Source: an uncultured Candidatus Saccharibacteria bacterium (GTDB lineage Bacteria > Patescibacteriota > Doudnabacteria > UBA920). From it: a DNA stretch of 64,000 nt. Below, in pieces: positions 3,916 to 16,792 of the stretch; positions within the stretch are counted from its first letter, which is position 1, and each line of letters begins with the position of its first letter. Both the position numbers and the translations under genes were made by a program. The DNA lies in contig CAZQMO010000005.1 of the NCBI GenBank assembly GCA_964594755.1, positions 1,144-65,143 of the forward strand, read 5' to 3'. The notes under the pieces were generated by a model. It was not told the DNA's origin. It was given only the letters and a program-made list of their open reading frames with translations, and did not search any database.

Positions 3916-4320
3916 TTAGGTAGGTTCTACGATATTAATCTTCTTGCTGTCTTTGGTCAAAGTTACAATCGCTTTCTTAAAACCGCTGCGTTGGCCAAGA
4001 ACGCGGCCAAAACGACGGGACTTGCCAGCAACGTTTACCATGTTGACGTTGGCCACTTTTACGCCATACATCTTTTCTACTGCGCGGCGGACTTCAATCT
4101 TATTGAGTTTGCCGTAAACAGTAAAGATGTATTGGTTAAAGCGATCAACGAAACCTGCTTTTTCGGACACACGAGGAACAATCAAGCCTTTGTTGCCAAT
4201 ACCGCTGTGAGGAACGTCTAACATAACAGGAGCTGCAGCTTCGGTTGGTTGATCAGTAACAGGAGTTTCTTCTACGGTTACTTTCTCGTCAGTATTTTCT
4301 TTTTTAGAAAAAAGAGCCAT
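3916..4320 (-). CDS. rplW: 50S ribosomal protein L23; start uncertain, possibly the internal Met near 4224
   Basis: The core [10 protein letters not shown]...[10 protein letters not shown] is L23-like. The ORF carries a ~32-aa acidic N-terminal extension that may not be translated. Confidence 0.85.
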
Positions 4321-4493
4321 GTCGTCGTCCTTGTCTTCCGGGCTATCGGTATCAGCTAATGCTAATTCCTATCGCCCTCCGCCAAGTACTCCTCTTAAAT
4401 TTTCGCTTAACTGGCGCCTTCGCTACGACCCTCCTCGTTACACTGCGTCGGGTCGGCTCAGGTTTAGCCCAAGCGAAAATTTATATTTAATGA

Positions 4494-5153
4494 TTACTTA
4501 GTTGCTTTAGATTCTTTAAGATAAGTCTTTTCTATAACTGGCAAACTTTCTTTTATTACGAGCATTGCGTCTGCCTTAAGGATGTCGGTTACATTAAGGC
4601 TAGTAGCCAAAGTGGTTGTGACTTCTGGAAGATTGCGTGAAGCGCGAGCTACACTGTCATCTTTCTTTGGCATCACTACCATCTGCTTCTTGCCGAGACT
4701 GCCGAGCTTAGTGTGGAAAGCGGTCATGAACTTTACGAATTCCTTAGTCTTAGGAGCTTCCAAGTTTACGCCTTCTACGATGATCAACTTGCCGTCTTTA
4801 GCTTTGTCAGATAGGGACATGAATAAAGCTTTAGTCTTGGCTTTCTTGTTGATCTTTAAACTCCAGTTGCGTTCTGAGCGAGGGCCGAAAGTAACACCAC
4901 CGTGACGCCAGATTGGGCTACGAGTGCTACCTGCGCGTGCGCGACCGGTACCCTTTTGACGCCATGGCTTCTTACCACCACCACTCACTTCGCCGCGAGT
5001 CTTAGTGTGCGCAAGGCCCTTACGGGCATTGGAAGCCTGAACGCGAACCGCTTCTGCAAGCAAGTGCAAGGATGGCTTGACGCCAAAAATCTTGTCACTG
5101 ACTTCGATTTCGCCAACGCTTTCGGCGTTCTGATTGTAAACTGCAATTTTCAT
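4494..5153 (-). CDS. rplD: 50S ribosomal protein L4
   Basis: 219 aa, L4-like (GGGKKPWRQKGTGRAR). Confidence 0.93.
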   Translation of the reverse strand: MKIAVYNQNAESVGEIEVSDKIFGVKPSLHLLAEAVRVQASNARKGLAHTKTRGEVSGGGKKPWRQKGTGRARAGSTRSPIWRHGGVTFGPRSERNWSLKINKKAKTKALFMSLSDKAKDGKLIIVEGVNLEAPKTKEFVKFMTAFHTKLGSLGKKQMVVMPKKDDSVARASRNLPEVTTTLATSLNVTDILKADAMLVIKESLPVIEKTYLKESKATK

Positions 5154-5175
5154 CTGTTCTTAAATAAAATTGAAA

Positions 5176-5844
5176 CTATTTCTTCTTCTTGGTCTCAGCT
5201 ACTTCTTGGAACAACGGTTTAGTAACTCCGGTTGTGGAAATCTTTACCATTCCGTTGGGATGTCCAGGAACTGCGCCTTTGATGAGGATTAAGCCTTTAG
5301 CTGCGTCTACATCAACGATTTGCAGATTCTTTACGGTAACCTGAGAAGCGCCCATATGGCCAGCCATGCGGCGGCCTTTGTTAACGTGTTGTGGATAACG
5401 AGAACCAATAGAACCAACACTGCGAGGCTTGTCGTGACCATGACTTCCAGGAAAACCTGCAAAGTTATGTCGCTTCATTACGCCAGCGAAACCGCGGCCT
5501 TTCATTGTTCCAATAACATTCACTAGCTCGCCGACTTCGAATTGGGAAGCATCAATAGTTTGGCCGATTTGGAATTCGCTTGGGTTTTCTACGCGGAATT
5601 CAACAAACTTACCAAAGGTGCCAAGGTTCTTGGAGTGACCAGCCTTAGCTTTGTTTGCATGGCGGCTTCCAGCTACGCTTGCGGAAACACCAACCTGCAC
5701 GGCATTGTAGCCATCTTTTGCGTCTGCAGTCTTAACTTGAGTAACAACCAAGTTAGGAGTTTTGACAACAGTGACCGGAATTACTTCGCCGTTATCAGCA
5801 AAGTATTGGGTCATATTCAGTTTCTTACCGACAATAAATTTCAT
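5176..5844 (-). CDS. rplC: 50S ribosomal protein L3
   Basis: 222 aa, L3-like (KGRGFAGVMKRHNF...). Confidence 0.93.
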   Translation of the reverse strand: MKFIVGKKLNMTQYFADNGEVIPVTVVKTPNLVVTQVKTADAKDGYNAVQVGVSASVAGSRHANKAKAGHSKNLGTFGKFVEFRVENPSEFQIGQTIDASQFEVGELVNVIGTMKGRGFAGVMKRHNFAGFPGSHGHDKPRSVGSIGSRYPQHVNKGRRMAGHMGASQVTVKNLQIVDVDAAKGLILIKGAVPGHPNGMVKISTTGVTKPLFQEVAETKKKK

Positions 5845-6024
5845 ACGGTTTTGATTGGTCCCGAGCGGGACATCACTTTCTTAAAAATAAAAAATGTGGC
5901 TACTCACCACATAAAAACAAATGACTGTACCCGAAGGCAATCCCTTGCTTATACTTGGCGAATAGTTATCTGAATCACGAAGCTTTTTGGGCTTTAGTGG
6001 TTCAGAACCGACTCACTCTATTAT

Positions 6025-6348
6025 TTAACTCATTTTGATTTCTACATCCACCCCAGCTGGAAGGCTTAGGTTGGTAAGAGAATCAATGGTTTTTGGCGTT
6101 GGCTCGAGAATGTCGATCATGCGCTTGTGAGTGCGCATTTCGAACTGTTCGCGGCTATCCTTATGCACGAAAGTTGAACGCAATACTGTGTATTTGCGCT
6201 TCGCGGTCGGCAAAGGCACAGGGCCCGAAATGGTTGCCCCAGTACGCTTCGCTGTTTCAACAATCTGCTTAGCACTTTGGTCAATCAACTTGTGATCGTA
6301 AGCGCGGATCTTGATGCGAATTTTCGGCTTGTGGTCGCCTTTTTCCAT
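6025..6348 (-). CDS. rpsJ: 30S ribosomal protein S10; the 6402 end in the ORF track is a TTG-initiated extension
   Basis: [23 protein letters not shown] matches the S10 N-terminus; the ATG is at 6348. Confidence 0.9.
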
Positions 6349-6441
6349 AAAATGAATTGACAATATGCCGTTTTCTGGCTTATTTAAGCTGTTATACAGC
6401 AATTAAAAGCGCTTGGCTATTTAGCCAGCAAACTATGAGCA

Positions 6442-6470
6442 ATTTTATCTGATTTTTATAGCAATGTCAA
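6442..6470 (-). promoter_or_regulatory. sigma70-type promoter of the S10 operon (TTGACA-17-TAAAAT on the minus strand)
   Basis: Reverse complement of 6465-6470 is TTGACA; a 17-nt spacer follows; reverse complement of 6442-6447 is TAAAAT. An ~85-nt leader separates it from the rpsJ ATG. Confidence 0.6.
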
Positions 6471-6506
6471 ATGTTTTTAAGGATAAATTTAGCTTTTTTG
6501 CCAATA

Positions 6507-6535
6507 TTGACAAAAACATAAGAATATGCTATAGT
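6507..6535 (+). promoter_or_regulatory. near-consensus sigma70 promoter, TTGACA-17-TATAGT
   Basis: ttgaca at 6507-6512 and tatagt at 6530-6535. GGAGG lies at 6571-6575 and the ATG at 6583. Confidence 0.65.
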
Positions 6536-6582
6536 TTGATTGTTCTAAATACCACGGAAAATCAAAATTTGGAGGAAAATTG

Positions 6583-7152
6583 ATGGGTAAATACGAAAAG
6601 CGTGTTGTTGCTATCGTTAGCATTTTGGTAGGCTTGGCTTCGTTTGGAATCGGTACCTATTTCAGTAATCTCTTTGAGTCGGAAACCGCTCTGCCCTGCC
6701 CTGAACAGGTAAAGAGCGTTGTCCCGATCAAACAGAATCAGGTCAACTACGACCGGCCGGCTCACAAAAGCCGACCCGAGATCATCGCCCAATTCGTCGG
6801 TACATGGAATCGAACCAGAGATGAGTACAACTACTTATCAAAGTTCGAAGCCAAAACGCCCGACTCGTTCGGCGGCGAAATCCAAGCCCTATACCGGGTT
6901 GGAGAAAAATTCTCCGAACTCAGGAATGTAATGGAAGTCAATCAGTTAACCTCGACCGAGGTTGGCGTTAGTCACCAGCAACTTCGCAGGCACGAAGCTC
7001 TGATCTACCGCAGAACATTGGATGCAGTTTACAAACTGCAAAAGATGGGCGGCACCAATCGGTGCCTATTCGAGGGAGGATGCTTCGACACTCCTGAACA
7101 TATCCGGCGAATCGATTCGCATATCACCGGACTCGTTCTGGAATTAGAATAA
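6583..7152 (+). CDS. hypothetical membrane-anchored protein (N-terminal TM helix), GC-richer than its surroundings
   Basis: 190-aa ORF with a strong RBS. The hydrophobic segment is VVAIVSILVGLASFGIGTYF. No motif was recognised. Confidence 0.6.
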   Translation: MGKYEKRVVAIVSILVGLASFGIGTYFSNLFESETALPCPEQVKSVVPIKQNQVNYDRPAHKSRPEIIAQFVGTWNRTRDEYNYLSKFEAKTPDSFGGEIQALYRVGEKFSELRNVMEVNQLTSTEVGVSHQQLRRHEALIYRRTLDAVYKLQKMGGTNRCLFEGGCFDTPEHIRRIDSHITGLVLELE

Positions 7153-7177
7153 TCAAGTCGGTTACAAAATAAGTATT

Positions 7178-7206
7178 AGAGAGTCTAACCAACTCTCTTT
7201 TTTTAT
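7178..7206 (+). terminator. intrinsic terminator (agagagt-ctaacca-actctct followed by a T-run)
   Basis: Perfect 7-bp stem followed by TTTTTTTT, directly after the stop of the 6583 gene. Confidence 0.7.
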
Positions 7207-7257
7207 TTCTAAATTAGGCAAACTAAAAGAGCTGCGAATTTTACAGCTCTTTAAGAT

Positions 7258-8112
7258 TTATTCATCAAATTTTCTATTACCAAACATCAATAACTTTTTA
7301 CCTAGACCTGTTAAATTAAGCTTAGCTTTATCCAACTCAATTCGCTGTTGTTGTGAATCAATCTGTGACTGATAACGACGGACATGCTCATGGTTTTCTA
7401 AATCCTGATAAATATAACCTAGAGCGAAACTTTCATTTGCTGGTTTTTCCAAAAGACCCAATGATATCAAATTATCTAAATAAATACTGATATTATTGGG
7501 AAATTTTAGGTTAACTTTTTCAAATAGAATACAAAAATTTCTTTCTAGTAGTAAATACCCTTCTTGATTATTCCTGTATAACTTTATTTCAAGGACAGGT
7601 AAAGAACCTTTCAGATTCACTGAGGATAAATCAGCACTAAAGCCAAATTTAGATCTTATATCTGGGTCTAGGCCATCAAGATTCACCGAATTTTGTGATG
7701 AACCGATATGCTCAAGTATCAATATTTCATCAGAGCTTAATCTATTTAATATTTCTATAAATGTTGGAAGTACTCTACTCGCAGTATCTTTATCAGAAGC
7801 AGTCGCTAAAATCTTTGCATAATAATCAGAAACCACCGATTCATCTGTATATCGAAGTTTTTCTAAAATTGGAACAAGAATACGAGTATCAGGTTCTACT
7901 AAGTTCTGAACAGGAACATTCTCAAGATAATTTATATATTTCAGAATATTCATCTCTAATATTTCTGCCATTCTACCCACGGGTGTAGCAAAAAGTGAAA
8001 CACACTGTGCTAAAGATTTTCCTAAAACTCTAATTGACGGCTGAGCAGCATCTGTATAAACTTCTGCTGCATTAGCCTTTACTATTTCTTTTATCAACTC
8101 ATTTTCATCCAT
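7258..8112 (-). CDS. hypothetical protein, possibly of the Abi-alpha / DUF4393-like (abortive-infection) family
   Basis: AT-rich 284-aa ORF. The N-terminal segment AEVYTDAAQPSIRVLGKSLAQCVSLFATPVG resembles my recollection of the Abi_alpha N-terminal motif. This was not verified by any search. Confidence 0.35.
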   Translation of the reverse strand: MDENELIKEIVKANAAEVYTDAAQPSIRVLGKSLAQCVSLFATPVGRMAEILEMNILKYINYLENVPVQNLVEPDTRILVPILEKLRYTDESVVSDYYAKILATASDKDTASRVLPTFIEILNRLSSDEILILEHIGSSQNSVNLDGLDPDIRSKFGFSADLSSVNLKGSLPVLEIKLYRNNQEGYLLLERNFCILFEKVNLKFPNNISIYLDNLISLGLLEKPANESFALGYIYQDLENHEHVRRYQSQIDSQQQRIELDKAKLNLTGLGKKLLMFGNRKFDE

Positions 8113-8136
8113 AGCTTTACACAATTAAATCATCTA

Positions 8137-8165
8137 CAAAAAGCTGCCCTTGCGGGCAGCTTTTC
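8137..8165. terminator. bidirectional intrinsic terminator downstream of tuf
   Basis: agctgccc-ttgc-gggcagct is a perfect 8-bp stem. An A-run precedes it and a T-run follows it. Confidence 0.7.
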
Positions 8166-8170
8166 AAATT

Positions 8171-9352
8171 CTACTTATTGATCTTTACAACTACACCTGC
8201 ACCAACGGTGCGTCCGCCTTCGCGGATAGCGAACTTACCTTTTTCTTCCAAAGCGATCGGAGTGATCAACTTTACGTCGATGGTAACAGTATCACCAGGC
8301 ATAACCATTTCTTGGCCTTCAGGCAAGATTACTTCACCAGTCACGTCGGTTGTACGAACGTAGAACTGTGGTTTGTAACCCTTGAAGAATGGAGTGTGAC
8401 GTCCACCTTCTTCTTTGGTCAAGATGTAAACTTCAGCAGAGAACTCAGTGTGAGGAGTGATAGAACCAGGCTTAGCCAAAACTTGGCCGCGCTCTACTTC
8501 TTCTTTCTTAACACCACGGAGCAATAGACCAGCGTTGTCACCAGCCATACCCTTGTCCAACTGCTTGTTGAACATTTCGATACCAGTTACAACTGTCTTT
8601 GAAGTTGGTTTGATACCAACGATTTCAACTTCTTCGTTGATGTTGATGATACCACGTTCGATACGTCCGGTAACAACAGTACCGCGACCTTCGATAGTGA
8701 AGATATCTTCAATTGGCATCAAGAAAGGCTTATCGGTTTCGCGAGTTGGTTCAGGGATGAAAGTATCCAAAGCTTCAACGAGCTTAAGGATGGTTTCTTC
8801 GTTAGCCGCATCGCCTTCGAGAGCCTTTAATGCAGAACCACGGATGATTGGGGTATCGCTACCCGGAAATTCGTACTTGTTAAGAAGATCACGAATTTCT
8901 TCTTCTACTAGATCCAAAAGTTCTGGATCGGAAACTTGGTCTACCTTGTTCATGTAAACAACGATAGAAGGTACACCTACCTGACGAGCGAGCAAGATGT
9001 GTTCGCGAGTCTGAGGCATAGGACCGTCTGCAGCGGATACAACGAGAATCGCACCGTCCATTTGAGCAGCACCGGTAATCATGTTCTTGATGTAGTCGGC
9101 GTGACCAGGACAGTCTACGTGAGCGTAGTGGCGCTTGTCGGATTCGTATTCGCTGTGTGAGGTATTAATAGTAATACCACGAGCTTTTTCTTCTGGCGCG
9201 TTGTCGATTTGGTCGTAAGCCTTAGCTTTAGCCTTACCGGACTTCGCAAGCACAGTAGTGATAGCAGCGGTCAAAGTAGTCTTACCGTGGTCAACGTGAC
9301 CAATGGTACCCACATTCAAATGGGGCTTTGAGCGATCAAATGCTTCTGCCAT
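8171..9352 (-). CDS. tuf: elongation factor Tu
   Basis: [32 protein letters not shown]...; GTPase motifs are present. The ORF-track start at 9403 is an upstream in-frame extension. Confidence 0.96.
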
Positions 9353-9631
9353 TTGTTGCCTTTCAACTAGATAATTGTTGGTTGGGTTTCGAGATACCCT
9401 CACTCCTTCCCCTATCGATACGAGGAAAAAGAGAGGGTTTCTCTTTTTTTCACAAAGGAATCCAGAAACTCCAGACGGGAATTATATAGTTGTGTTAATG
9501 ATTATAAAATTGGCGGCTAAACTAGCGCCAATCAGTAAGTATTTTAATGGTTTATCACAGGAACGTCAAGTTGCCTGACTAAAGTAAATGTGGCACAATG
9601 AAGCCATCATAGCAGAGGAGGTTATCATTCC

Positions 9632-9892
9632 ATGTCATACCGGCTTCTTAAAGTGCATTGGGTAAAATACCGCGGCGCAAAGAAAATCCGAGACCTCTAT
9701 TCCTACCACCGGTCGGAAAAAGAGATTGCGGCATTCCGCATTCGCCTAGACAGACGGAATAAAAAACGGTTCAGCTTGTTCCATTACTCAATCGGCTGCA
9801 AAGGTTTTGTGAAGGTTTCTGGAAACCTTGCGCACAAAGTTTTGCACTCTGAGTTTGGCATCTGGCATCGTGAAGAAAAACAGCCTGCGTAA
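9632..9892 (+). CDS. hypothetical small basic protein (86 aa)
   Basis: Strong SD (ggaggt) 8 nt upstream. The stop lies in the loop of a terminator hairpin. No recognisable domain. Confidence 0.5.
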   Translation: MSYRLLKVHWVKYRGAKKIRDLYSYHRSEKEIAAFRIRLDRRNKKRFSLFHYSIGCKGFVKVSGNLAHKVLHSEFGIWHREEKQPA

Positions 9893-9907
9893 CGCGGGCT
9901 GCTTTTT
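9881..9907. terminator. bidirectional intrinsic terminator shared by convergent genes
   Basis: cagcctgcg-taa-cgcgggctg has a 9-bp stem with one G-U pair, followed by TTTTT. The stop codons of both flanking genes lie inside it. Confidence 0.7.
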
Positions 9908-10349
9908 ATATATCTTCAAAACTGGGCTTGATTTCTTCGTCCTCGGCAATAGAAATAGTCGGACTAGCCGTGCGCTGCATAGCTGGATGTTCGCTTTCTT
10001 CGCGCGGGTCATAATTGATTTCATCCATAGTAGGAGGTGCGGGTTTGGATACAAATAAGTTTTGAGCTCGTTCCTGTAGGATCTGGCCAATGGATTCAGG
10101 CATGGCAACTTCGGCTTGTATCGTTTCCAAGTTATGATTACTTGGCGCAATATTGTCCTTAAGTTGCGCTTCTAAGATCTCCCGATTAATTGTTTCTGGG
10201 TCAATCCGGGTAGCAATAGCATCTGACTGTGGGTGGATTTTTTGATACTCAGCGTATGTTATAAATATCCCTTTTACATCACCATCATCACCAACAACAA
10301 CCACTTTCCCCTGTTGTCCAGCGAGTTTTAATAATTCTTTTAGGTTCAT
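9906..10349 (-). CDS. hypothetical acidic protein; the N-terminal ~40 aa are reminiscent of a Phd/YefM-type antitoxin fold
   Basis: 147 aa. GKVVVVGDDGDVKGIFITYAEYQKI resembles the YefM pattern. The C-terminal 100 aa are acidic and low-complexity. The overlapping 120-aa ORF (9788-10150) is judged spurious. Confidence 0.45.
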   Translation of the reverse strand: MNLKELLKLAGQQGKVVVVGDDGDVKGIFITYAEYQKIHPQSDAIATRIDPETINREILEAQLKDNIAPSNHNLETIQAEVAMPESIGQILQERAQNLFVSKPAPPTMDEINYDPREESEHPAMQRTASPTISIAEDEEIKPSFEDI

Positions 10350-10415
10350 ATCTACAGTATACTTGGCTGATTCTGAGCTATCAAGTGAACATAATTTATG
10401 GTTTGATCAATCTGA

Positions 10416-11261
10416 TTAAATTTTAGTTGCGGCTAAAACCCAAAAAAGTAACAACCCAAATAGGCCATTTATAAATGGAAAGTACCAATATACTTTTCGG
10501 ATTTCTTCCATGCTTTTTGGCAGCAACCACAAGCAAGCTGCCACATAAACCAGTGATAGCAAAGCTGACCAAGGCAGCCAAAAGTCAGCAACCACCAAAG
10601 CCGCAGTTGAACCTAACCACAGCACTGAACAAAGCAATAAAGATTTTTTTACCCCTAAAACAACTGCGGTAGTTTTTAGGTTAGCTTGACTATCAGCTTG
10701 AATATCTGGCACGGCAGAAAAGATATGCATAGCAGCGGTCCAGCACCATGCAGCCACAACTGCCCAGATTGGCGGCCAATCCCCGCTCAGCATGGCGTAA
10801 CCAGCAAAACCAATCACCGCATAATGTACATTAGAGATTGCATCAATTGCGGGCTTGGATTTAAAACGCAATGGCTCGGAACTATAAGCCCAAGCTAAAA
10901 ATAAAAAAATTGAGATTAAAATTTGGGTAGGTAGGTTTGGGGCCAGAATAACTAAAATTATACCAATCACAATGCACAACCAGACCCATAATCGCAAAGC
11001 TTTCGATTCTGGTCGCTGAAGTAAATGTTCTTGTTGGCCCTTCTTCTCGTTATAAGGATCGGTATCATCATCAAACAAATCATTCACGCCATAAATAAAT
11101 ATATTTGCGGGGATAATAAAATAACAAAAGTAAAGAATCACTTGCCAATTCAGCAAATCATAAATTGTGTTACTACCAGCGATTGCTCCAACTAAAAAAG
11201 TACCACCAGCATACAACCAAAATCTTGGTCGTGAAATTATTAATAAAGTTGTTAAGTTCAT
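10416..11261 (-). CDS. UbiA-family polyprenyltransferase (membrane)
   Basis: 281 aa with ~8 TM segments and the Asp-rich motif NDLFDDDTD. It is adjacent to the polyprenyl synthase and the CrtM/CrtN-like genes. Confidence 0.7.
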   Translation of the reverse strand: MNLTTLLIISRPRFWLYAGGTFLVGAIAGSNTIYDLLNWQVILYFCYFIIPANIFIYGVNDLFDDDTDPYNEKKGQQEHLLQRPESKALRLWVWLCIVIGIILVILAPNLPTQILISIFLFLAWAYSSEPLRFKSKPAIDAISNVHYAVIGFAGYAMLSGDWPPIWAVVAAWCWTAAMHIFSAVPDIQADSQANLKTTAVVLGVKKSLLLCSVLWLGSTAALVVADFWLPWSALLSLVYVAACLWLLPKSMEEIRKVYWYFPFINGLFGLLLFWVLAATKI

Positions 11262-12314
11262 TTATTTTATTCGAACCATTAAATAATCAATTAAGCTATC
11301 AAAAGCTTCTTGTTGTTTAACTGAAAACGGTAACTGGCGCGATAATTTGAGTGCCTGCACTTGCTGGGCTAGTAATTCTTTCTGTGCCAAGTCATCGATT
11401 TTATGCTCAATCATCTTACTAAGCACCCAGTTCTGCTGTTTAGCGGTTAATAATTGTTTACGATTGTATAAAGCTAGTAAAGTTTGTTTATCCTGACCAG
11501 ACAAACTCTTTAAAGTTTGATAGTAAAGCCAAGTAAGTTTGCGTTCTCGGATATCTCCACCTACAGATTTGCCAGTTTGCTTAGAGTTCCCAAACACCCC
11601 GAGAATATCATCACGGATCTGGAAAATCACACCCATACATTCAGCCAACTGCTGTGTTCGTTTATAAACCTTGGTGGTATATTTACCAGACAAATGAAAG
11701 CCGGCCAGCAATGGTAAAGCGAAGGTATAACGCCCGGTTTTTTGTATATATATTCTGGTAATCTTTTTAAGGTCAGGCTTACGACCAGCCGTAGCCATAT
11801 CAACGTCGTCCATTTGAGCGAAACCTAGATTGACCATTTCATCAGAAAAAAGTTTAATCAACTCCGGCTGAACTTTTTTTGTCGAACCTAAAAGCCCTAC
11901 TGCTAAAAAATAACTGACAATTGCTACACAACTAGCCAAGCTTTCGCCGTAATGCAGTTGCTCTTTTGGTAATAGTCCCGCAAGAGAGTTTTGGTACTGA
12001 GTATGAATAGTTGGTTGACCGCGCCGCTCAGTATCGCGATCCATAATATCATCATGAATTAAAATTCCTGAATGCATTAACTCTAATGCTGCGCCTACTT
12101 TAACTGCATCAGCTTTCACAGAAGCACTCCCTGAATCAGCGGCCAGCACCACTAAACTGCCACGCACCAACTTCCCCGCGCTAGCAAATTTCTGCAAGCG
12201 ATTTAAAGCGTCTTTCGACCACACATACCCTAACCCACTTTTTTGTGAATTTTTAAAAGCTTTGCCCAGCTCAGCTACTAGCAGTTTTTTATAATCTACA
12301 AATGTTTTATTCAT
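11262..12314 (-). CDS. polyprenyl diphosphate synthase (trans-IPPS; CrtE/IspA-like)
   Basis: 350 aa. The first Asp-rich motif is LIHDDIMD. The second region is FQIRDDILGVFG. Confidence 0.75.
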   Translation of the reverse strand: MNKTFVDYKKLLVAELGKAFKNSQKSGLGYVWSKDALNRLQKFASAGKLVRGSLVVLAADSGSASVKADAVKVGAALELMHSGILIHDDIMDRDTERRGQPTIHTQYQNSLAGLLPKEQLHYGESLASCVAIVSYFLAVGLLGSTKKVQPELIKLFSDEMVNLGFAQMDDVDMATAGRKPDLKKITRIYIQKTGRYTFALPLLAGFHLSGKYTTKVYKRTQQLAECMGVIFQIRDDILGVFGNSKQTGKSVGGDIRERKLTWLYYQTLKSLSGQDKQTLLALYNRKQLLTAKQQNWVLSKMIEHKIDDLAQKELLAQQVQALKLSRQLPFSVKQQEAFDSLIDYLMVRIK

Positions 12315-13150
12315 GGAACCAATTGCTTAATTGCCGATAATACAATGCGTTTTCTCGATACACTGACTTTTTCTTCCAGCACAATGAGAGGGTCTGCTTC
12401 GATCACAGAAATAACTTGATCAAATGCTTCAGTAGCTGCTCGGATAGCTAACTGATAGCGTTTTGGGATAAATGAGAATCCAGCTTCTGACTGTGTACGC
12501 CAATCTTTATACAAAGCGATCTGCTCCAACATAAACTGACTAAACTCTTTTGGTTTTGCTTTTGCAACACTGATGGTAAGACTTGAGAAACCGTATCTTT
12601 GATAACTGTCTTTAGGGAAATATACTCGCCCTAATTCATAATCTTCTTTAAAATCTCTTATCATATTCATGTACTGAAACGCTCGCCCAAGCATCTTAGC
12701 CGAAAAATCTGCCTCAATTGGTAAGTTCATCAAACGAGCCATCATTAAACCAATAACTTCAGCCGAACCATAGATGTAATGCAAGGTCTCATCGAGATTG
12801 TCATACTGGCTTTTATGCAAGTCCATATTCATTGAACCAAAAAATGCATCCACCCAACTCTGTTCAAAGGCATATTTTTTTTGTAAAAGCACAAAGCGAT
12901 CAATAATTGGCTCGCCTGAAACTTTACCTTGCACAGCTCCTTGATACAAAGACCAAAAGTTATTAAACTCTTTAACTTTTTGTGGCAGTACGTCCACATA
13001 ATTATCCGCTGTTCTCACAAAAGCATACAGATCAAAAACATCCCGTCGGAGCTTGCCTGGGAAAAATAAGCTAGCAGTGAAAAATGTTTTACTGCCTTGT
13101 TTAAAAATATTAAAGTTTTGCAAATTAGCTAACATGATCTTGTCTAACAT
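12311..13150 (-). CDS. phytoene / dehydrosqualene synthase family protein (CrtB/CrtM-like)
   Basis: 279 aa. Motifs YAFVRTADNYVD, YIYGSAEVIGLM and NMIRDFKEDYELGRVYFP match the squalene/phytoene synthase family. Confidence 0.65.
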   Translation of the reverse strand: MLDKIMLANLQNFNIFKQGSKTFFTASLFFPGKLRRDVFDLYAFVRTADNYVDVLPQKVKEFNNFWSLYQGAVQGKVSGEPIIDRFVLLQKKYAFEQSWVDAFFGSMNMDLHKSQYDNLDETLHYIYGSAEVIGLMMARLMNLPIEADFSAKMLGRAFQYMNMIRDFKEDYELGRVYFPKDSYQRYGFSSLTISVAKAKPKEFSQFMLEQIALYKDWRTQSEAGFSFIPKRYQLAIRAATEAFDQVISVIEADPLIVLEEKVSVSRKRIVLSAIKQLVP

Positions 13151-14600
13151 TATCCCTAGCCAATTGGCCAGAAATTAAAGTCATAGGAACACCAATCCCT
13201 GGCTGGGTAAATTGCCCTACAAAGTATAGGTTATGAACTTTTTTGCTTTTAGTCCTTGGTCTAAACAATGATGTTTGACTTAAAGTGTGACTCAAGCCTA
13301 GAGCCGTACCTTTATATGCATTATAATCAGCCGAAAAGTCATTCAAAGAAAAAAGTCTTTTTACCTTAACGGCATCAGAAACTGTTTGGCCAATACTTTT
13401 TTCAAAATGATTAATGATTTTATGATAATACTGATCTCGAATTTCCAATGTGTCTTCTAATCCGCTAGCAATCGGCACTAAAAAGAATAAATTCTCGGAT
13501 CCTTCTGGCGCAACATCTGAATCTGTCTGCGACGGGCAACAAACGTAATACGAAGGGTCAGATGGCCAAGCTGGCTTTTGAAAAATTGCATTAAAATGCC
13601 GCACCCAATCATTGTCCAAAAACAACATATGGTGCTTCACATTAAGAAGCTTCTTGCTCAGCCCAAGATAAATAATGAACGCCGATGGCGCCATAGTGCG
13701 CTTTTGCCAGTAACTTTCACTATAAGTGCGATCGGATACCTCAAGCAATTGTGTTTCAACATGATGGTAATCAGCATTAGCAACGACAATGTCACAAGGA
13801 TACGTTTGCTTGTCAGTTTCTACCGAAACAGCTTGACCATTTTGTGTATGCACCGCAAGAACATTCTCTTCAAATATAAATTTTGCTCCATACTCTTCAG
13901 CCAATTTTCTGATACCCTCTGCTACTGCGCCAAAACCACCCATGGGATACCAGACTCCAAGATTAAAGTCAGCATGATTAATGACCGAATATAAAGCTGG
14001 GGTATTTTTTGGAGCACCCCCCAGAAAAACCATACTGTACTCTAGAATTTTGCGTAGTTTTTCTGATTTAAAAAACCTTTGAGTGAAGGCGTCTAAGTTT
14101 TGAAAAACATGTAACTTACTACCTTCGATTAGCATTCGTTTATTAAAAAAATCAAATACTGATCGAAAATCTTTATACAAAAATTCTTTCATAGAAACTT
14201 CGTACTGGTATCGAGCTTGCTTCAAATATTCCTGGAGTTGTTTACCAGCACCTGGCTCAATTGATTCAAATAACTCCATGTTCTTTTGTAAAGAAGCTGC
14301 AATATCTACGAACTCATCCTGAAAATAAATCCGGTAGGAAGGATCGAGTCGATGGAGCTGATAATAATCACTTGGCTTCTTACCAAACTCAGCAAAAAAA
14401 TTTTCGAAGGCATCTGGCATCAAATACCAAGAAGGGCCCATGTCAAACTTAAAACCGGCCTCTCGCCAAACTCGAGCCCGGCCACCTATGCTATTATTTT
14501 TTTCGATAACAGTTACATTGTATCCGTCTTTAGCAAGAAAAGCAGCTACGCTTAACCCACCAAAGCCGGCGCCAATTACAACTACATTTTTTGGCGTCAT
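13125..14600 (-). CDS. FAD-dependent carotenoid desaturase of the CrtI/CrtN family, closest by eye to CrtN (diapophytoene desaturase)
   Basis: 491 aa. It has an N-terminal Rossmann fold VVVIGAGFGGL. EKNNSIGGRARVWREAGFKFDMGPSWYLMPD parallels Staphylococcus CrtN EKNNNVGGR...GFTFDMGPTIVMMPD. The C-terminus is LYFVGQFTQPGIGVP. Confidence 0.65.
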   Translation of the reverse strand: MTPKNVVVIGAGFGGLSVAAFLAKDGYNVTVIEKNNSIGGRARVWREAGFKFDMGPSWYLMPDAFENFFAEFGKKPSDYYQLHRLDPSYRIYFQDEFVDIAASLQKNMELFESIEPGAGKQLQEYLKQARYQYEVSMKEFLYKDFRSVFDFFNKRMLIEGSKLHVFQNLDAFTQRFFKSEKLRKILEYSMVFLGGAPKNTPALYSVINHADFNLGVWYPMGGFGAVAEGIRKLAEEYGAKFIFEENVLAVHTQNGQAVSVETDKQTYPCDIVVANADYHHVETQLLEVSDRTYSESYWQKRTMAPSAFIIYLGLSKKLLNVKHHMLFLDNDWVRHFNAIFQKPAWPSDPSYYVCCPSQTDSDVAPEGSENLFFLVPIASGLEDTLEIRDQYYHKIINHFEKSIGQTVSDAVKVKRLFSLNDFSADYNAYKGTALGLSHTLSQTSLFRPRTKSKKVHNLYFVGQFTQPGIGVPMTLISGQLARDNVRQDHVS

Positions 14601-14668: not shown

Positions 14669-16792
14669 TTATTGTCCCTTACGGACGTTCATTCCAGCAC
14701 GAGACTCTATGATTGTAGCAGCTACGTTCTTGGGAACTTCTTCGTAATGATCGAATTCCATTATAGAAGATGCTTGGCCTTGAGTTAAGCTGCGGAGCTG
14801 TGTCGCGTAACCGAACATTTCGGCAAGCGGTACAAACGCAGTAATAACTTTACGACCGGTAATGTCTTCCATGTCTTGGACTTTAGCTCGCTTGGAGTTT
14901 AAGTCGCCGATGACGTCACCCATGTTGGCTTCGGGGGTAGTAACAACGACCTTCATCACAGGCTCCAAGAGTACTGGATTACCTTTCTTCACGGCTTCTT
15001 GCAAACACTTTGAAGCAGCAATTTTGAAAGCCATTTCCGAAGAGTCAACTTCGTGATAACTTCCATCGTACAGCGCGGCCCGGAAGTCTACTAATGGGTA
15101 TCCAGCGATAACACCGTTAGCAGCAGATTCTTGAATACCTTTATCAATTGGCTTGATATATTCTTTTGGAATTACACCACCAACGATTTCATCAACGAAT
15201 TCATAACCTTTACCAGATTCAAGCGGTTCAACGCGCAAGTATACGTGACCATATTGACCACGACCACCAGACTGACGAATGTATTTTACTTCAGCAGTAG
15301 CAGTATTGCGGAAGGTTTCCTTGTAAGCAACTTCTGGCTTACCAACGTTAGCTTCAACTTTGAATTCGCGCTTCATGCGGTCTACCAAAATTTCCAAGTG
15401 AAGTTCACCCATACCAGCAATAATTGTTTGCTGGGTTTCTTCGTTAGAAGAAACATTGAAAGTCGGATCTTCTTCGGCAAGCTTTTGCAAAGCAATACCC
15501 ATTTTTTCTTGGTCAGCTTTGGTCTTTGGCTCAATAGCCATGGAAATAACTGGATCTGCGAACTTGATCTTTTCTAATTCAATTGGCGCATTTTCGGCAC
15601 AAAGAGTGTCGGCAGTGATAGTGTCTTTTGGACCTACCAACGCACAAATGTCACCAGCGAATACTTCTTTCACTTCATCACGTTGGTCAGCGCGCATACG
15701 CACGATACGGCCAACGCGTTCTTTGTTGCCAGTACGAGCGTTAAGCACGTAAGAGCCAGCAGTCAAAGTTCCGGAATAAACGCGGAAGAAAGCTAAGCGA
15801 CCTACGAATGGGTCGGTTGCAATCTTGAAAGCCAATGCAGTGAAAGGTTCGCTGTCGTCTGGCTTGCGTTCTAATTCTTCACCAGTCTTGGGGTTGTGAC
15901 CTTTAACTGGTCCTTTGTCGGTTGGAGATGGCAGGAAGTTAGCAACACCATCAAGCAATGTGCGCACGATAATCCCACGACCGTCGCCACCAAATACAGG
16001 ATAAAATTCACCGCTCTGAACCGCCTTACGAATAGTCAAAAGTAATTCTTCTTCGGTTAAGCCTTCACCACCAAGATACTTTTCCATCATAGCTTCGTCG
16101 TATTCCACGACTTTTTCGATAAGCTCTTGGCGATACTGCTCGGCCTTTTCTTTCATGTCAGCAGGAACTTCACCAATTGTGAATTCTTTATCGGTGTAGT
16201 CCTTGTAAGTGTAGGACTTCATTCCAACTAAATCTACAACACCTACAATGTCTTTTTCGAAACCGATCGGCAGTTGAACTGGGAAAGCGTTTTTGGTGAG
16301 ACGGTTGTGGATGGATTCCAAAGACTTATAAAAGTCGCCGCCGGTTTGGTTGATTTTGTTAATGAAACACATGCGAGGTACGCCGTACTTGTCAGCTTGG
16401 CGCCACACAGTTTCGGATTGGGGCTCTACACCCATTTTACCGTCAAAGACGGTAACTGCACCGTCGAGCACGCGCAAAGAGCGCTCTACTTCTACGGTAA
16501 AGTCTACGTGACCAGGAGTGTCAATGATGTTAATCTTGCACTCTTTGTCGCCGTCTAATTTTAAATACTGAGGCTTCCAGTAACAGGTTACCGCCGCAGA
16601 AGTGATAGTGATACCACGTTCCCGTTCTTGTTCCATCCAGTCGGTTACAGTTTCACCTTCGTGAACCGCACCGATTTTGTGAACCATACCAGTGTTGTAC
16701 AAGATACCTTCGGTAGTTGTAGTTTTACCAGCATCAATGTGAGCGATAATCCCGATATTACGGGTTGCTTCTATTGGATATTCTCTAGGCAT
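14669..16792 (-). CDS. fusA: elongation factor G
   Basis: 707 aa; [28 protein letters not shown]... Confidence 0.96.

Follow-up and report, generated by a model that had tools for sequence, protein, structure and literature searches.

An Abi-alpha-family gene in a variable tuf-rpsJ spacer of a Patescibacterium

The subject of this work is the spacer between tuf, encoding elongation factor Tu (EF-Tu), and rpsJ, the ribosomal protein S10 gene, in a 64,000-nucleotide (nt) stretch of DNA from an uncultured Candidatus Saccharibacteria bacterium (Patescibacteriota, Doudnabacteria in GTDB; contig CAZQMO010000005.1, positions 1,144 to 65,143), which as a whole is called the window below. Two genes lie in this spacer, one for a protein of the abortive-infection family Abi_alpha and one, named F190 here, for a membrane-anchored protein. 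We consider it likely that the abi-alpha gene was acquired horizontally into a variable hotspot specific to one Patescibacteria clade, that F190 is a resident of this hotspot and not a partner of abi-alpha, and that abi-alpha is expressed by read-through from tuf. As stated in the original prediction, which was made from the letters of the sequence, the two genes are convergent; each has its own hairpin 3' of it. The layout is given in the following lines, in which slot A is the cargo position behind tuf and slot B the one behind the divergent promoters next to rpsJ.

6025-6348, minus strand: rpsJ (ribosomal protein S10), conserved right-hand anchor of the variable spacer
6470-6442, minus strand: rpsJ promoter, TTGACA-17-TAAAAT
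6507-6535, plus strand: F190 (slot B) promoter, TTGACA-17-TG-TATAGT, 11/12 consensus match with a TG extension, divergent from the rpsJ promoter
6583-7152, plus strand: F190 gene, 189 amino acids (aa) from ATG or 190 aa from the TTG at 6580
7178-7198, plus strand: hairpin H2, AGAGAGT-CTAACCA-ACTCTCT followed by T7, intrinsic terminator of F190, z -2.4
7217-7226, plus strand: GGCAAACTAA, about 10 nt between H2 and H1
7226-7252: hairpin H1, AAAGAGCTG-N9-CAGCTCTTT, two-way terminator, here after the Abi stop codon, z -3.4
7258-8112, minus strand: abi-alpha gene, 284 aa from ATG, cargo of slot A
8139-8164, minus strand: tuf terminator hairpin, AAAAGCUGCCC-GCAA-GGGCAGCUUUU followed by UGU, -22.5 kcal/mol, z -3.7
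8171-9352, minus strand: tuf (EF-Tu, 393 aa), conserved left-hand anchor of the variable spacer

The remaining window is chromosomal housekeeping with ribosomal proteins, tRNA synthetases, TGT and ParB.

By profile comparison the assignment of the 284-aa product to the Abi_alpha family is strong. Pfam PF14337 (Abi_alpha / DUF4393) matches it with an E-value of 3.2e-37 and a score of 128.9 bits, the cut-off being 29, three PADLOC models of PDC-S47 match it at E 1.4e-41, 3.5e-27 and 1.3e-26, and phrog_2232 does so at E 1.4e-25. The Abi-alpha likeness had originally been seen in the N-terminus alone; it proved to span nearly the full length, the Pfam match covering residues 61-274 of 284 and profile positions 15-192 of 196. 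All of the 116 homologues that we found carry PF14337 and the majority come from Patescibacteria, Parcubacteria or Paceibacteria. The open reading frame (ORF) is intact and full-length and has kept 14 of the 14 invariant residues of the family. The protein shows no membrane segment (Kyte-Doolittle maximum 1.15) and is soluble, and its AlphaFold2 model (mean predicted local distance difference test score, pLDDT, 88.7) combines a helical N-terminal half similar to DUF2806/3H35 with a C-terminal half of weakly winged-helix-like shape. A Foldseek search of the model against the Protein Data Bank (PDB) gave 3h35_C (ABO_0056, DUF2806) as the best and sole significant relative (E 3.5e-4, probability 1.00). 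Searching the Abi profile against PDB sequences gave nothing, as its top match, an S20 ribosomal protein at E 0.32, is noise.

As predicted, the abi-alpha gene is AT-rich, and with a GC content of 0.320 and a third-position GC content (GC3) of 0.204 it has the lowest values of the 51 window genes (z -2.7). Because of this composition, because the closest non-identical homologue shows only 55% identity and because the gene is absent from contigs with an identical S10, its sequence and distribution mark it as horizontally acquired. It is not located in a prophage and no integrase was seen nearby; phage-borne DUF4393 proteins from a phage collection give partial matches to it with about 24-32% identity. 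Four homologues with 47-53% identity could be examined on long contigs, where they are found after PNPase, beside an RRM protein, between RNase H and ComEC and inside a type I restriction-modification (R-M) operon, respectively. The last one, 48% identical, sits in hsdM-RhuM-[Abi]-hsdS-...-hsdR. The neighbours thus differ in each context examined and there is no obligatory partner gene.

The founding member of the family is EF2833 from prophage 6 of Enterococcus faecalis V583, a single 272-aa protein that aborts infection by a Picovirinae phage via premature lysis; it works alone, and a distant structural relation to DUF2806 / 3H35 has been reported (PMC6356687). The abortive phenotype, in which adsorption of the phage is followed by death or early lysis of the infected cell and few infective centres arise, has been demonstrated for EF2833 only (PMC6356687). 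PDC systems are candidates whose defining feature is that they lie embedded within operons of BREX, DISARM or type I R-M systems (bioRxiv 10.1101/2024.01.29.577857).

In order to look at the spacer among close relatives we used the window S10 for a look-up, which returned an identical protein at ten loci (15 contigs), and we included two further contigs from other searches, L027 and L024, with 99% and 97% S10 identity. The flanks are highly conserved in these relatives: the rpsJ nucleotide sequence differs at 0-19 of 321 positions, the tuf 3' end of the window is 95-98.7% identical to that of L014-L019, and the rpsJ region shows 93-98% nucleotide identity. The content between these flanks is as follows.

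window: Abi-alpha and F190
L014: AT-rich 256-aa membrane protein (4917-5687), no F190
L015: AbiLi (E 6e-72) and AbiLii (E 5e-9), 280-2168
L016: 510-aa HD-like protein and F190
L017: 118-aa ORF only (1610-1966)
L019 / L026: ClpP-like SDH protease (L019:202-1170) and 153-aa ORF (L019:1283-1744)
L023: helical 269-aa protein (2-811) and F190
L027: PD-Lambda-5 A (E 7e-94) and B (E 7e-118) and F190
L024: 138-aa ORF (3941-4357), 510-aa HD-like protein and F190

Contigs with S10 proteins at least 97% identical and tuf ends 95-98.7% identical therefore show at least nine spacer layouts, and the window, L014 and L017 have three different layouts despite rplC-rplD DNA that is at least 96.5% identical. 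A comparison of the junctions shows conserved H1 and H2 hairpins and a variation that sets in at the very stop codon of tuf. A domain search among the spacer ORFs revealed no integrase or transposase domains. In L015 the AbiL pair is complete, its orientation is the opposite one, and H1 and H2 are missing. The first eight residues of a neighbouring 50-aa ORF are those of the 153-aa ORF of L019, which suggests a remnant of an earlier occupant. By their position in the spacer, the unknown-function cargo genes of L014, L019, L023, L017 and L024 are candidates, either as new defence genes or for another accessory function. For the 118-aa ORF a PADLOC match to ZorA (E 2.9e-3) was obtained, which is weak and was not used as evidence.

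From these comparisons a scaffold emerges that would read, from tuf to rpsJ, tuf terminator, slot A, H1, the 510-aa HD-like gene or its scar, H2, slot B, divergent promoters and rpsJ. Compared with shuffled sequence, each of the three hairpins folds better (z -2.4 to -3.7), and the terminator that had been proposed for tuf is present. H2 is kept in L014, L016, L017, L019, L023 and L027, and in L016 and L017 slot A is empty, with H1 lying immediately behind the stop codon of tuf. Slot B, read towards tuf, would usually be filled by F190. Its promoter had been noted originally together with a GGAGG ribosome-binding site, and both are confirmed: the promoter is kept in L003, L014 and L017 and the GGAGG lies at 6571-6575, 7 nt upstream of the ATG at 6583. 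The promoter scan by itself was not above chance, as 9 sites were found and 7.1 +/- 2.2 were expected. In L014 (5818-5900, corresponding to window 6507-6535) the slot-B promoter TTGACA ... TGATATAAT runs straight into H2 with no gene between them, an arrangement that looks like an 'empty landing pad'.

The 510-aa HD-like gene is located between H2 and H1 in L016 and L024. Its copies encode proteins of 505-510 aa with H...HD motifs, which are 49-86% identical to one another:

L016:270-1802, 505-510-aa HD-like protein
L024:2357-3889, 505-510-aa HD-like protein
L108:5717-7234, 505-510-aa HD-like protein
L028:3891-5411, 505-510-aa HD-like protein

The gene recurs downstream of F190 in L016, L024 and L108, and the copy in L028 stands without a recognisable F190. 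Pfam gave no match for the protein; a PADLOC match to dGTPase (E 2.9e-4) is weak and was not used as evidence. When the junction sequences were compared, the GGCAAACTAA at 7217-7226 could be read as a putative deletion scar consisting of the last codons and the stop codon of this gene.

We then surveyed the distance between tuf and rpsJ in 80 GTDB species representatives. In about 50 Patescibacteria species, with S10 identities of about 83% or less, the spacer measures 14-215 nt, and in about 28 species, with S10 identities mostly of at least 84%, it measures 0.4-4 kb. By this survey the expansion is specific to one Patescibacteria clade, which is named Doudnabacteria or 'Saccharibacteria' in the records. 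The original view that this junction normally carries nothing is thus correct for the former species and does not apply to the clade of the window.

Regarding expression, both spacer genes had been proposed to be transcribed independently, and for abi-alpha we could not support this. The tuf terminator hairpin and the Abi ATG are only 26 nt apart. No promoter with at least 9 of 12 matches was detected between them or in the last 130 nt of tuf, and there is no Shine-Dalgarno sequence in the 26 nt. In L014 the same tuf hairpin precedes a different cargo gene, there with a GGAGG only, and in three of the four contexts examined the Abi-alpha homologues lie 10-58 nt downstream of a co-directional gene. 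In view of the gap without promoter and Shine-Dalgarno sequence, the L014 cargo and the homologues behind co-directional genes, read-through from tuf probably provides abi-alpha with a low, constitutive expression, and this is a simpler explanation than independent transcription.

F190, the second gene of the spacer, was correctly described as a 190-aa, membrane-anchored protein of GC-richer composition: its GC content of 0.491 is the second-highest and its GC3 of 0.558 the highest of the 51 window genes (z +1.9), and the anchor comprises residues 8-26 (Kyte-Doolittle 19-residue maximum 2.08). From the alignment and the AlphaFold2 model (mean pLDDT 87, folded domain 94-98, residues 3-30 helical) its architecture consists of an N-terminal membrane helix, a disordered proline-rich linker, a four-helix bundle and a short beta-hairpin with the near-invariant motif G-x-TNRC-x-[WF]EGGC, which contains two cysteines. 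As positive charges precede the membrane helix, the N-terminus is placed inside and the bundle outside, and F190 is probably a surface-exposed four-helix-bundle protein with its N-terminus in and its C-terminus out, possibly with a disulphide. Pfam, PADLOC and PHROG all gave no match for F190, and the fold search found none in the PDB or BFVD at E <= 0.001; syntaxin, ferritin-like and TetR candidates were rejected as weak matches to generic helical bundles. A word-indexed search revealed three related proteins, and pattern scans based on the alignment of three sequences found no relatives in GTDB species genomes or JGI metagenome contigs. Only an exhaustive hidden Markov model (HMM) search with HMMER through 1.84 billion proteins reached the other twelve representatives, so that the family comprises 15 representatives at 50% identity, all with 175-210 aa save one fragment of 125 aa. 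With a ratio of nonsynonymous to synonymous substitution rates (dN/dS) of 0.15-0.30, the sequences identify F190 as a genuine protein-coding gene under purifying selection.

The GC-rich gene had been taken for a newcomer wedged into the junction, and here the comparison leads to a different picture. F190 is located divergently upstream of rpsJ or the rpsJ leader in all nine contexts that reach that far (window, L001/L023, L003, L016, L021, L024, L025, L027 and L108; L106 is too short to tell), including members with 22-28% identity, so that its position in the spacer is conserved down to 22% identity. Its neighbours vary and include the 510-aa HD-like protein, PD-Lambda-5, the helical 269-aa protein and a signal-peptide ORF. 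Abi-alpha is missing beside F190 in L001, L003, L016, L024, L025, L027 and L108, and Abi-alpha occurs without F190 in L006-L013. Judged by this distribution F190 is the positionally conserved, older resident of the spacer in this clade and does not belong to the Abi system. Between the window and L023 the synonymous sites of F190 are saturated (proportion of differing synonymous sites, pS, 0.64), whereas the adjacent rpsJ differs at only 7 of 321 nt, from which we infer replacement of whole alleles and not divergence in place. Highly divergent F190 alleles would thus be swapped at a fixed position. The original prediction had named a failure to match any defence domain, together with conservation of both genes as ordinary housekeeping genes, as the outcome that would speak against it; what we found is a clear Abi match for a gene that is not conserved at this place, and for F190 no such match and a conserved position.

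With regard to the explanations that make a functional link to a neighbour, the two spacer genes could be parts of one defence system in which Abi-alpha is a cytoplasmic sensor and F190 a membrane effector. They are indeed adjacent and convergent in the window genome and in two identical short contigs, and the premature lysis caused by the Enterococcus protein could need a membrane component. However, these are the only cases in which both occur together, F190 is found beside rpsJ with many other neighbours and is a neighbour in none of the four homologue contexts, the two genes lie on opposite strands with separate terminators and GC contents of 0.32 and 0.49, and EF2833 acts without a partner (PMC6356687), so that the unit implied by the original prediction appears highly improbable to us. 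The same prediction had found the location next to tuf notable, EF-Tu being a target or sensor in some abortive-infection systems. EF-Tu is a known target of the Lit protease, the Abi gene stands immediately downstream of tuf and co-transcription is possible, which would fit a protein that has EF-Tu as its target or sensor. Against this, the homologues with 47-53% identity never adjoin tuf in the four contexts, in sister genomes the tuf-adjacent slot is occupied by AbiL, PD-Lambda-5, a protease and unknown genes, and a motif check and Pfam profile search of the 284-aa protein detected no HExxH motif and no protease-family or Lit-type domain. We therefore give next to no credence to a functional link with EF-Tu.

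A further explanation regards the spacer as a neutral sink, in which the Abi-like gene is silent or serves something other than defence, for example by encoding a nucleic-acid-binding regulator or by acting as a selfish gene of the addiction type. The following observations speak for it or against our own reading. Most of the cargo is of unknown function, and a recognised defence system is found in 3 of about 9 close variants (Abi-alpha, AbiL and PD-Lambda-5), a raw count from comparison contigs that are mostly short metagenome fragments of uncertain relatedness. The expanded spacers of more distant species hold lipid-synthesis genes (CarS-like, CDP-alcohol transferase), glycosyltransferases and tetratricopeptide repeat (TPR) proteins, with a Zeta toxin in the spacer of one more distant species. 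This metabolic cargo indicates a region of general variability rather than a pure defence island, defence genes being prominent mainly among the nearest relatives of the window. Furthermore, abi-alpha has neither a promoter nor a Shine-Dalgarno sequence, its C-terminal half gives only weak winged-helix or regulator matches, the subfamily was not found in a scan of IMG/VR viral contigs, EF2833, a distant relative, is the one Abi_alpha member assayed so far, and PDC-S47 is itself a candidate. As to expression, the tuf terminator looks strong and read-through may be negligible, or the Abi gene may have a promoter that was not recognised by the scan. On the other hand, the ORF is intact with every invariant residue kept, the homologue inside the type I R-M operon next to RhuM shows the kind of embedding by which PDC systems are defined, and sister genomes have two further bona fide defence systems in this slot. 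A neutral sink thus seems unlikely, with a somewhat better claim to attention than the two links discussed above.

Taking these points together, we prefer the explanation that abi-alpha was acquired into a variable hotspot with F190 as its resident, and the events could be pictured as follows. In this clade the tuf-rpsJ spacer would have expanded from about 100 nt to 0.4-4 kb and become a variable hotspot, in which the present genome carries a single-gene Abi-alpha in slot A and F190 in slot B. H1 and H2 would insulate abi-alpha and F190 against one another and against the essential operons on either side, and the tuf terminator would probably let through the low, constitutive transcription on which the Abi gene depends. 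By analogy with EF2833, the Abi protein might then kill or prematurely lyse the infected cell and so abort the phage infection. As no integrase or transposase was seen among the spacer ORFs, the cargo is probably swapped by homologous recombination through the highly conserved flanks. A bolder version, which we regard as doubtful though worth stating, would make the spacer a dedicated integrase-free 'plug-in' immunity site with the tuf terminator, H1, H2 and the resident promoter as its fixed scaffold, in which slot A parasitises the read-through of the most strongly transcribed gene of the cell and recombination proceeds via the near-invariant translation genes. If this were true, the unknown cargo, the 510-aa HD-like protein and F190 would be new defence or surface-variation genes.

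The Patescibacteria (candidate phyla radiation) have tiny genomes and a poorly charted antiviral repertoire, and a recognisable single-gene Abi system is present here in a compact, structured and hypervariable slot between two of the most conserved bacterial operons. Reading the contents of the tuf-rpsJ spacer might therefore be a cheap route to new defence or surface-variation genes in this clade. F190 defines a small new family, a membrane-anchored four-helix bundle with a fixed position and extremely divergent alleles. The analysis also raises the idea that a toxic Abi protein obtains the low, constitutive expression it needs from transcripts that read through the tuf terminator.

Some further observations concern the surroundings of the spacer. 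The str operon of the window is interrupted between fusA (14669-16792) and tuf by a four-gene isoprenoid/carotenoid-like cluster (10416-14600, minus strand), which is unusual for a small Patescibacteria genome and consists of the following genes.

13125-14600, minus strand: phytoene-desaturase-like amine oxidase
12311-13150, minus strand: squalene/phytoene synthase
11262-12314, minus strand: polyprenyl synthetase
10416-11261, minus strand: UbiA prenyltransferase

In L014 this cluster is represented by the genes for polyprenyl synthetase and UbiA at least, and an extra glycosyltransferase follows. Between the start of tuf and a 147-aa ORF there are about 500 nt (9403-9906) with no convincing gene, of which the first approximately 200 nt compared are 97.5% identical to L014. 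An 86-aa ORF in the same gap (9632-9892, plus strand) is identical in L014, which has an extra 202-aa membrane ORF inserted beside the gap. This stretch may harbour an RNA or leader that has gone unrecognised, and it may be a second small spot of variation. An Rfam search of 5800-10400 gave zero matches, so that a known leader or small RNA explains neither the spacer nor the 500-nt gap upstream of tuf. The PADLOC scan of 47 window proteins also returned mad3 (E 6.7e-29), mad8 (E 1.4e-11), QatD (E 1.1e-17) and a C-3',4' desaturase model; the QatD match is probably a TatD DNase and the desaturase match probably the carotenoid-like desaturase, and mad8 perhaps corresponds to ParB. Ribosomal protein L23 (3916-4320, minus strand) has 134 aa with an N-terminal extension of about 35-40 residues before the conserved domain, and it has the same length in relatives.

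Among the known systems, EF2833 is the nearest to the Abi protein of the window when compared via family profile and description: both share PF14337 over nearly the whole protein, a similar length (284 and 272 aa), the nature of a single gene without a fixed partner and the relation to 3H35/DUF2806. In contrast to EF2833, which is located in a prophage, the window gene is chromosomal, belongs to a Patescibacterium and lies in a core-flanked slot; by its sequence it falls into a mainly Patescibacteria subfamily and has no own promoter, and its function here would follow from this family relation. Lit of E. coli e14 has in common with it only that it is classed as Abi and that EF-Tu is close by, in the window as the adjacent gene, and differs from a window protein without metalloprotease motif or domain, whose homologues show no recurrent association with tuf. 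With the 'guilt by embedding' cases (Payne et al., bioRxiv 10.1101/2024.01.29.577857) the gene shares the arrangement as cargo directly downstream, co-directional and without its own promoter, but the transcription unit acting as its host belongs to the translation gene tuf instead of to a further defence system. Defence hotspots flanked by core genes have been described, for example the core defence hotspots (cDHS) of Pseudomonas aeruginosa (PMC10250203). Like these, the tuf-rpsJ slot has conserved core flanks, a content that varies between close relatives, alternating unrelated defence systems and no integrase seen in the slot. Unlike these, it is flanked by tuf and the S10 operon, it is tiny with one to three genes on a fixed scaffold of terminator hairpins with a resident promoter, and its host has a very small Patescibacteria genome, in more distant species with non-defence cargo as well. 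The locus is thus a further instance both of an Abi-alpha / PDC-S47 gene and of a variable hotspot flanked by core genes, in an unusual place and an under-studied phylum.

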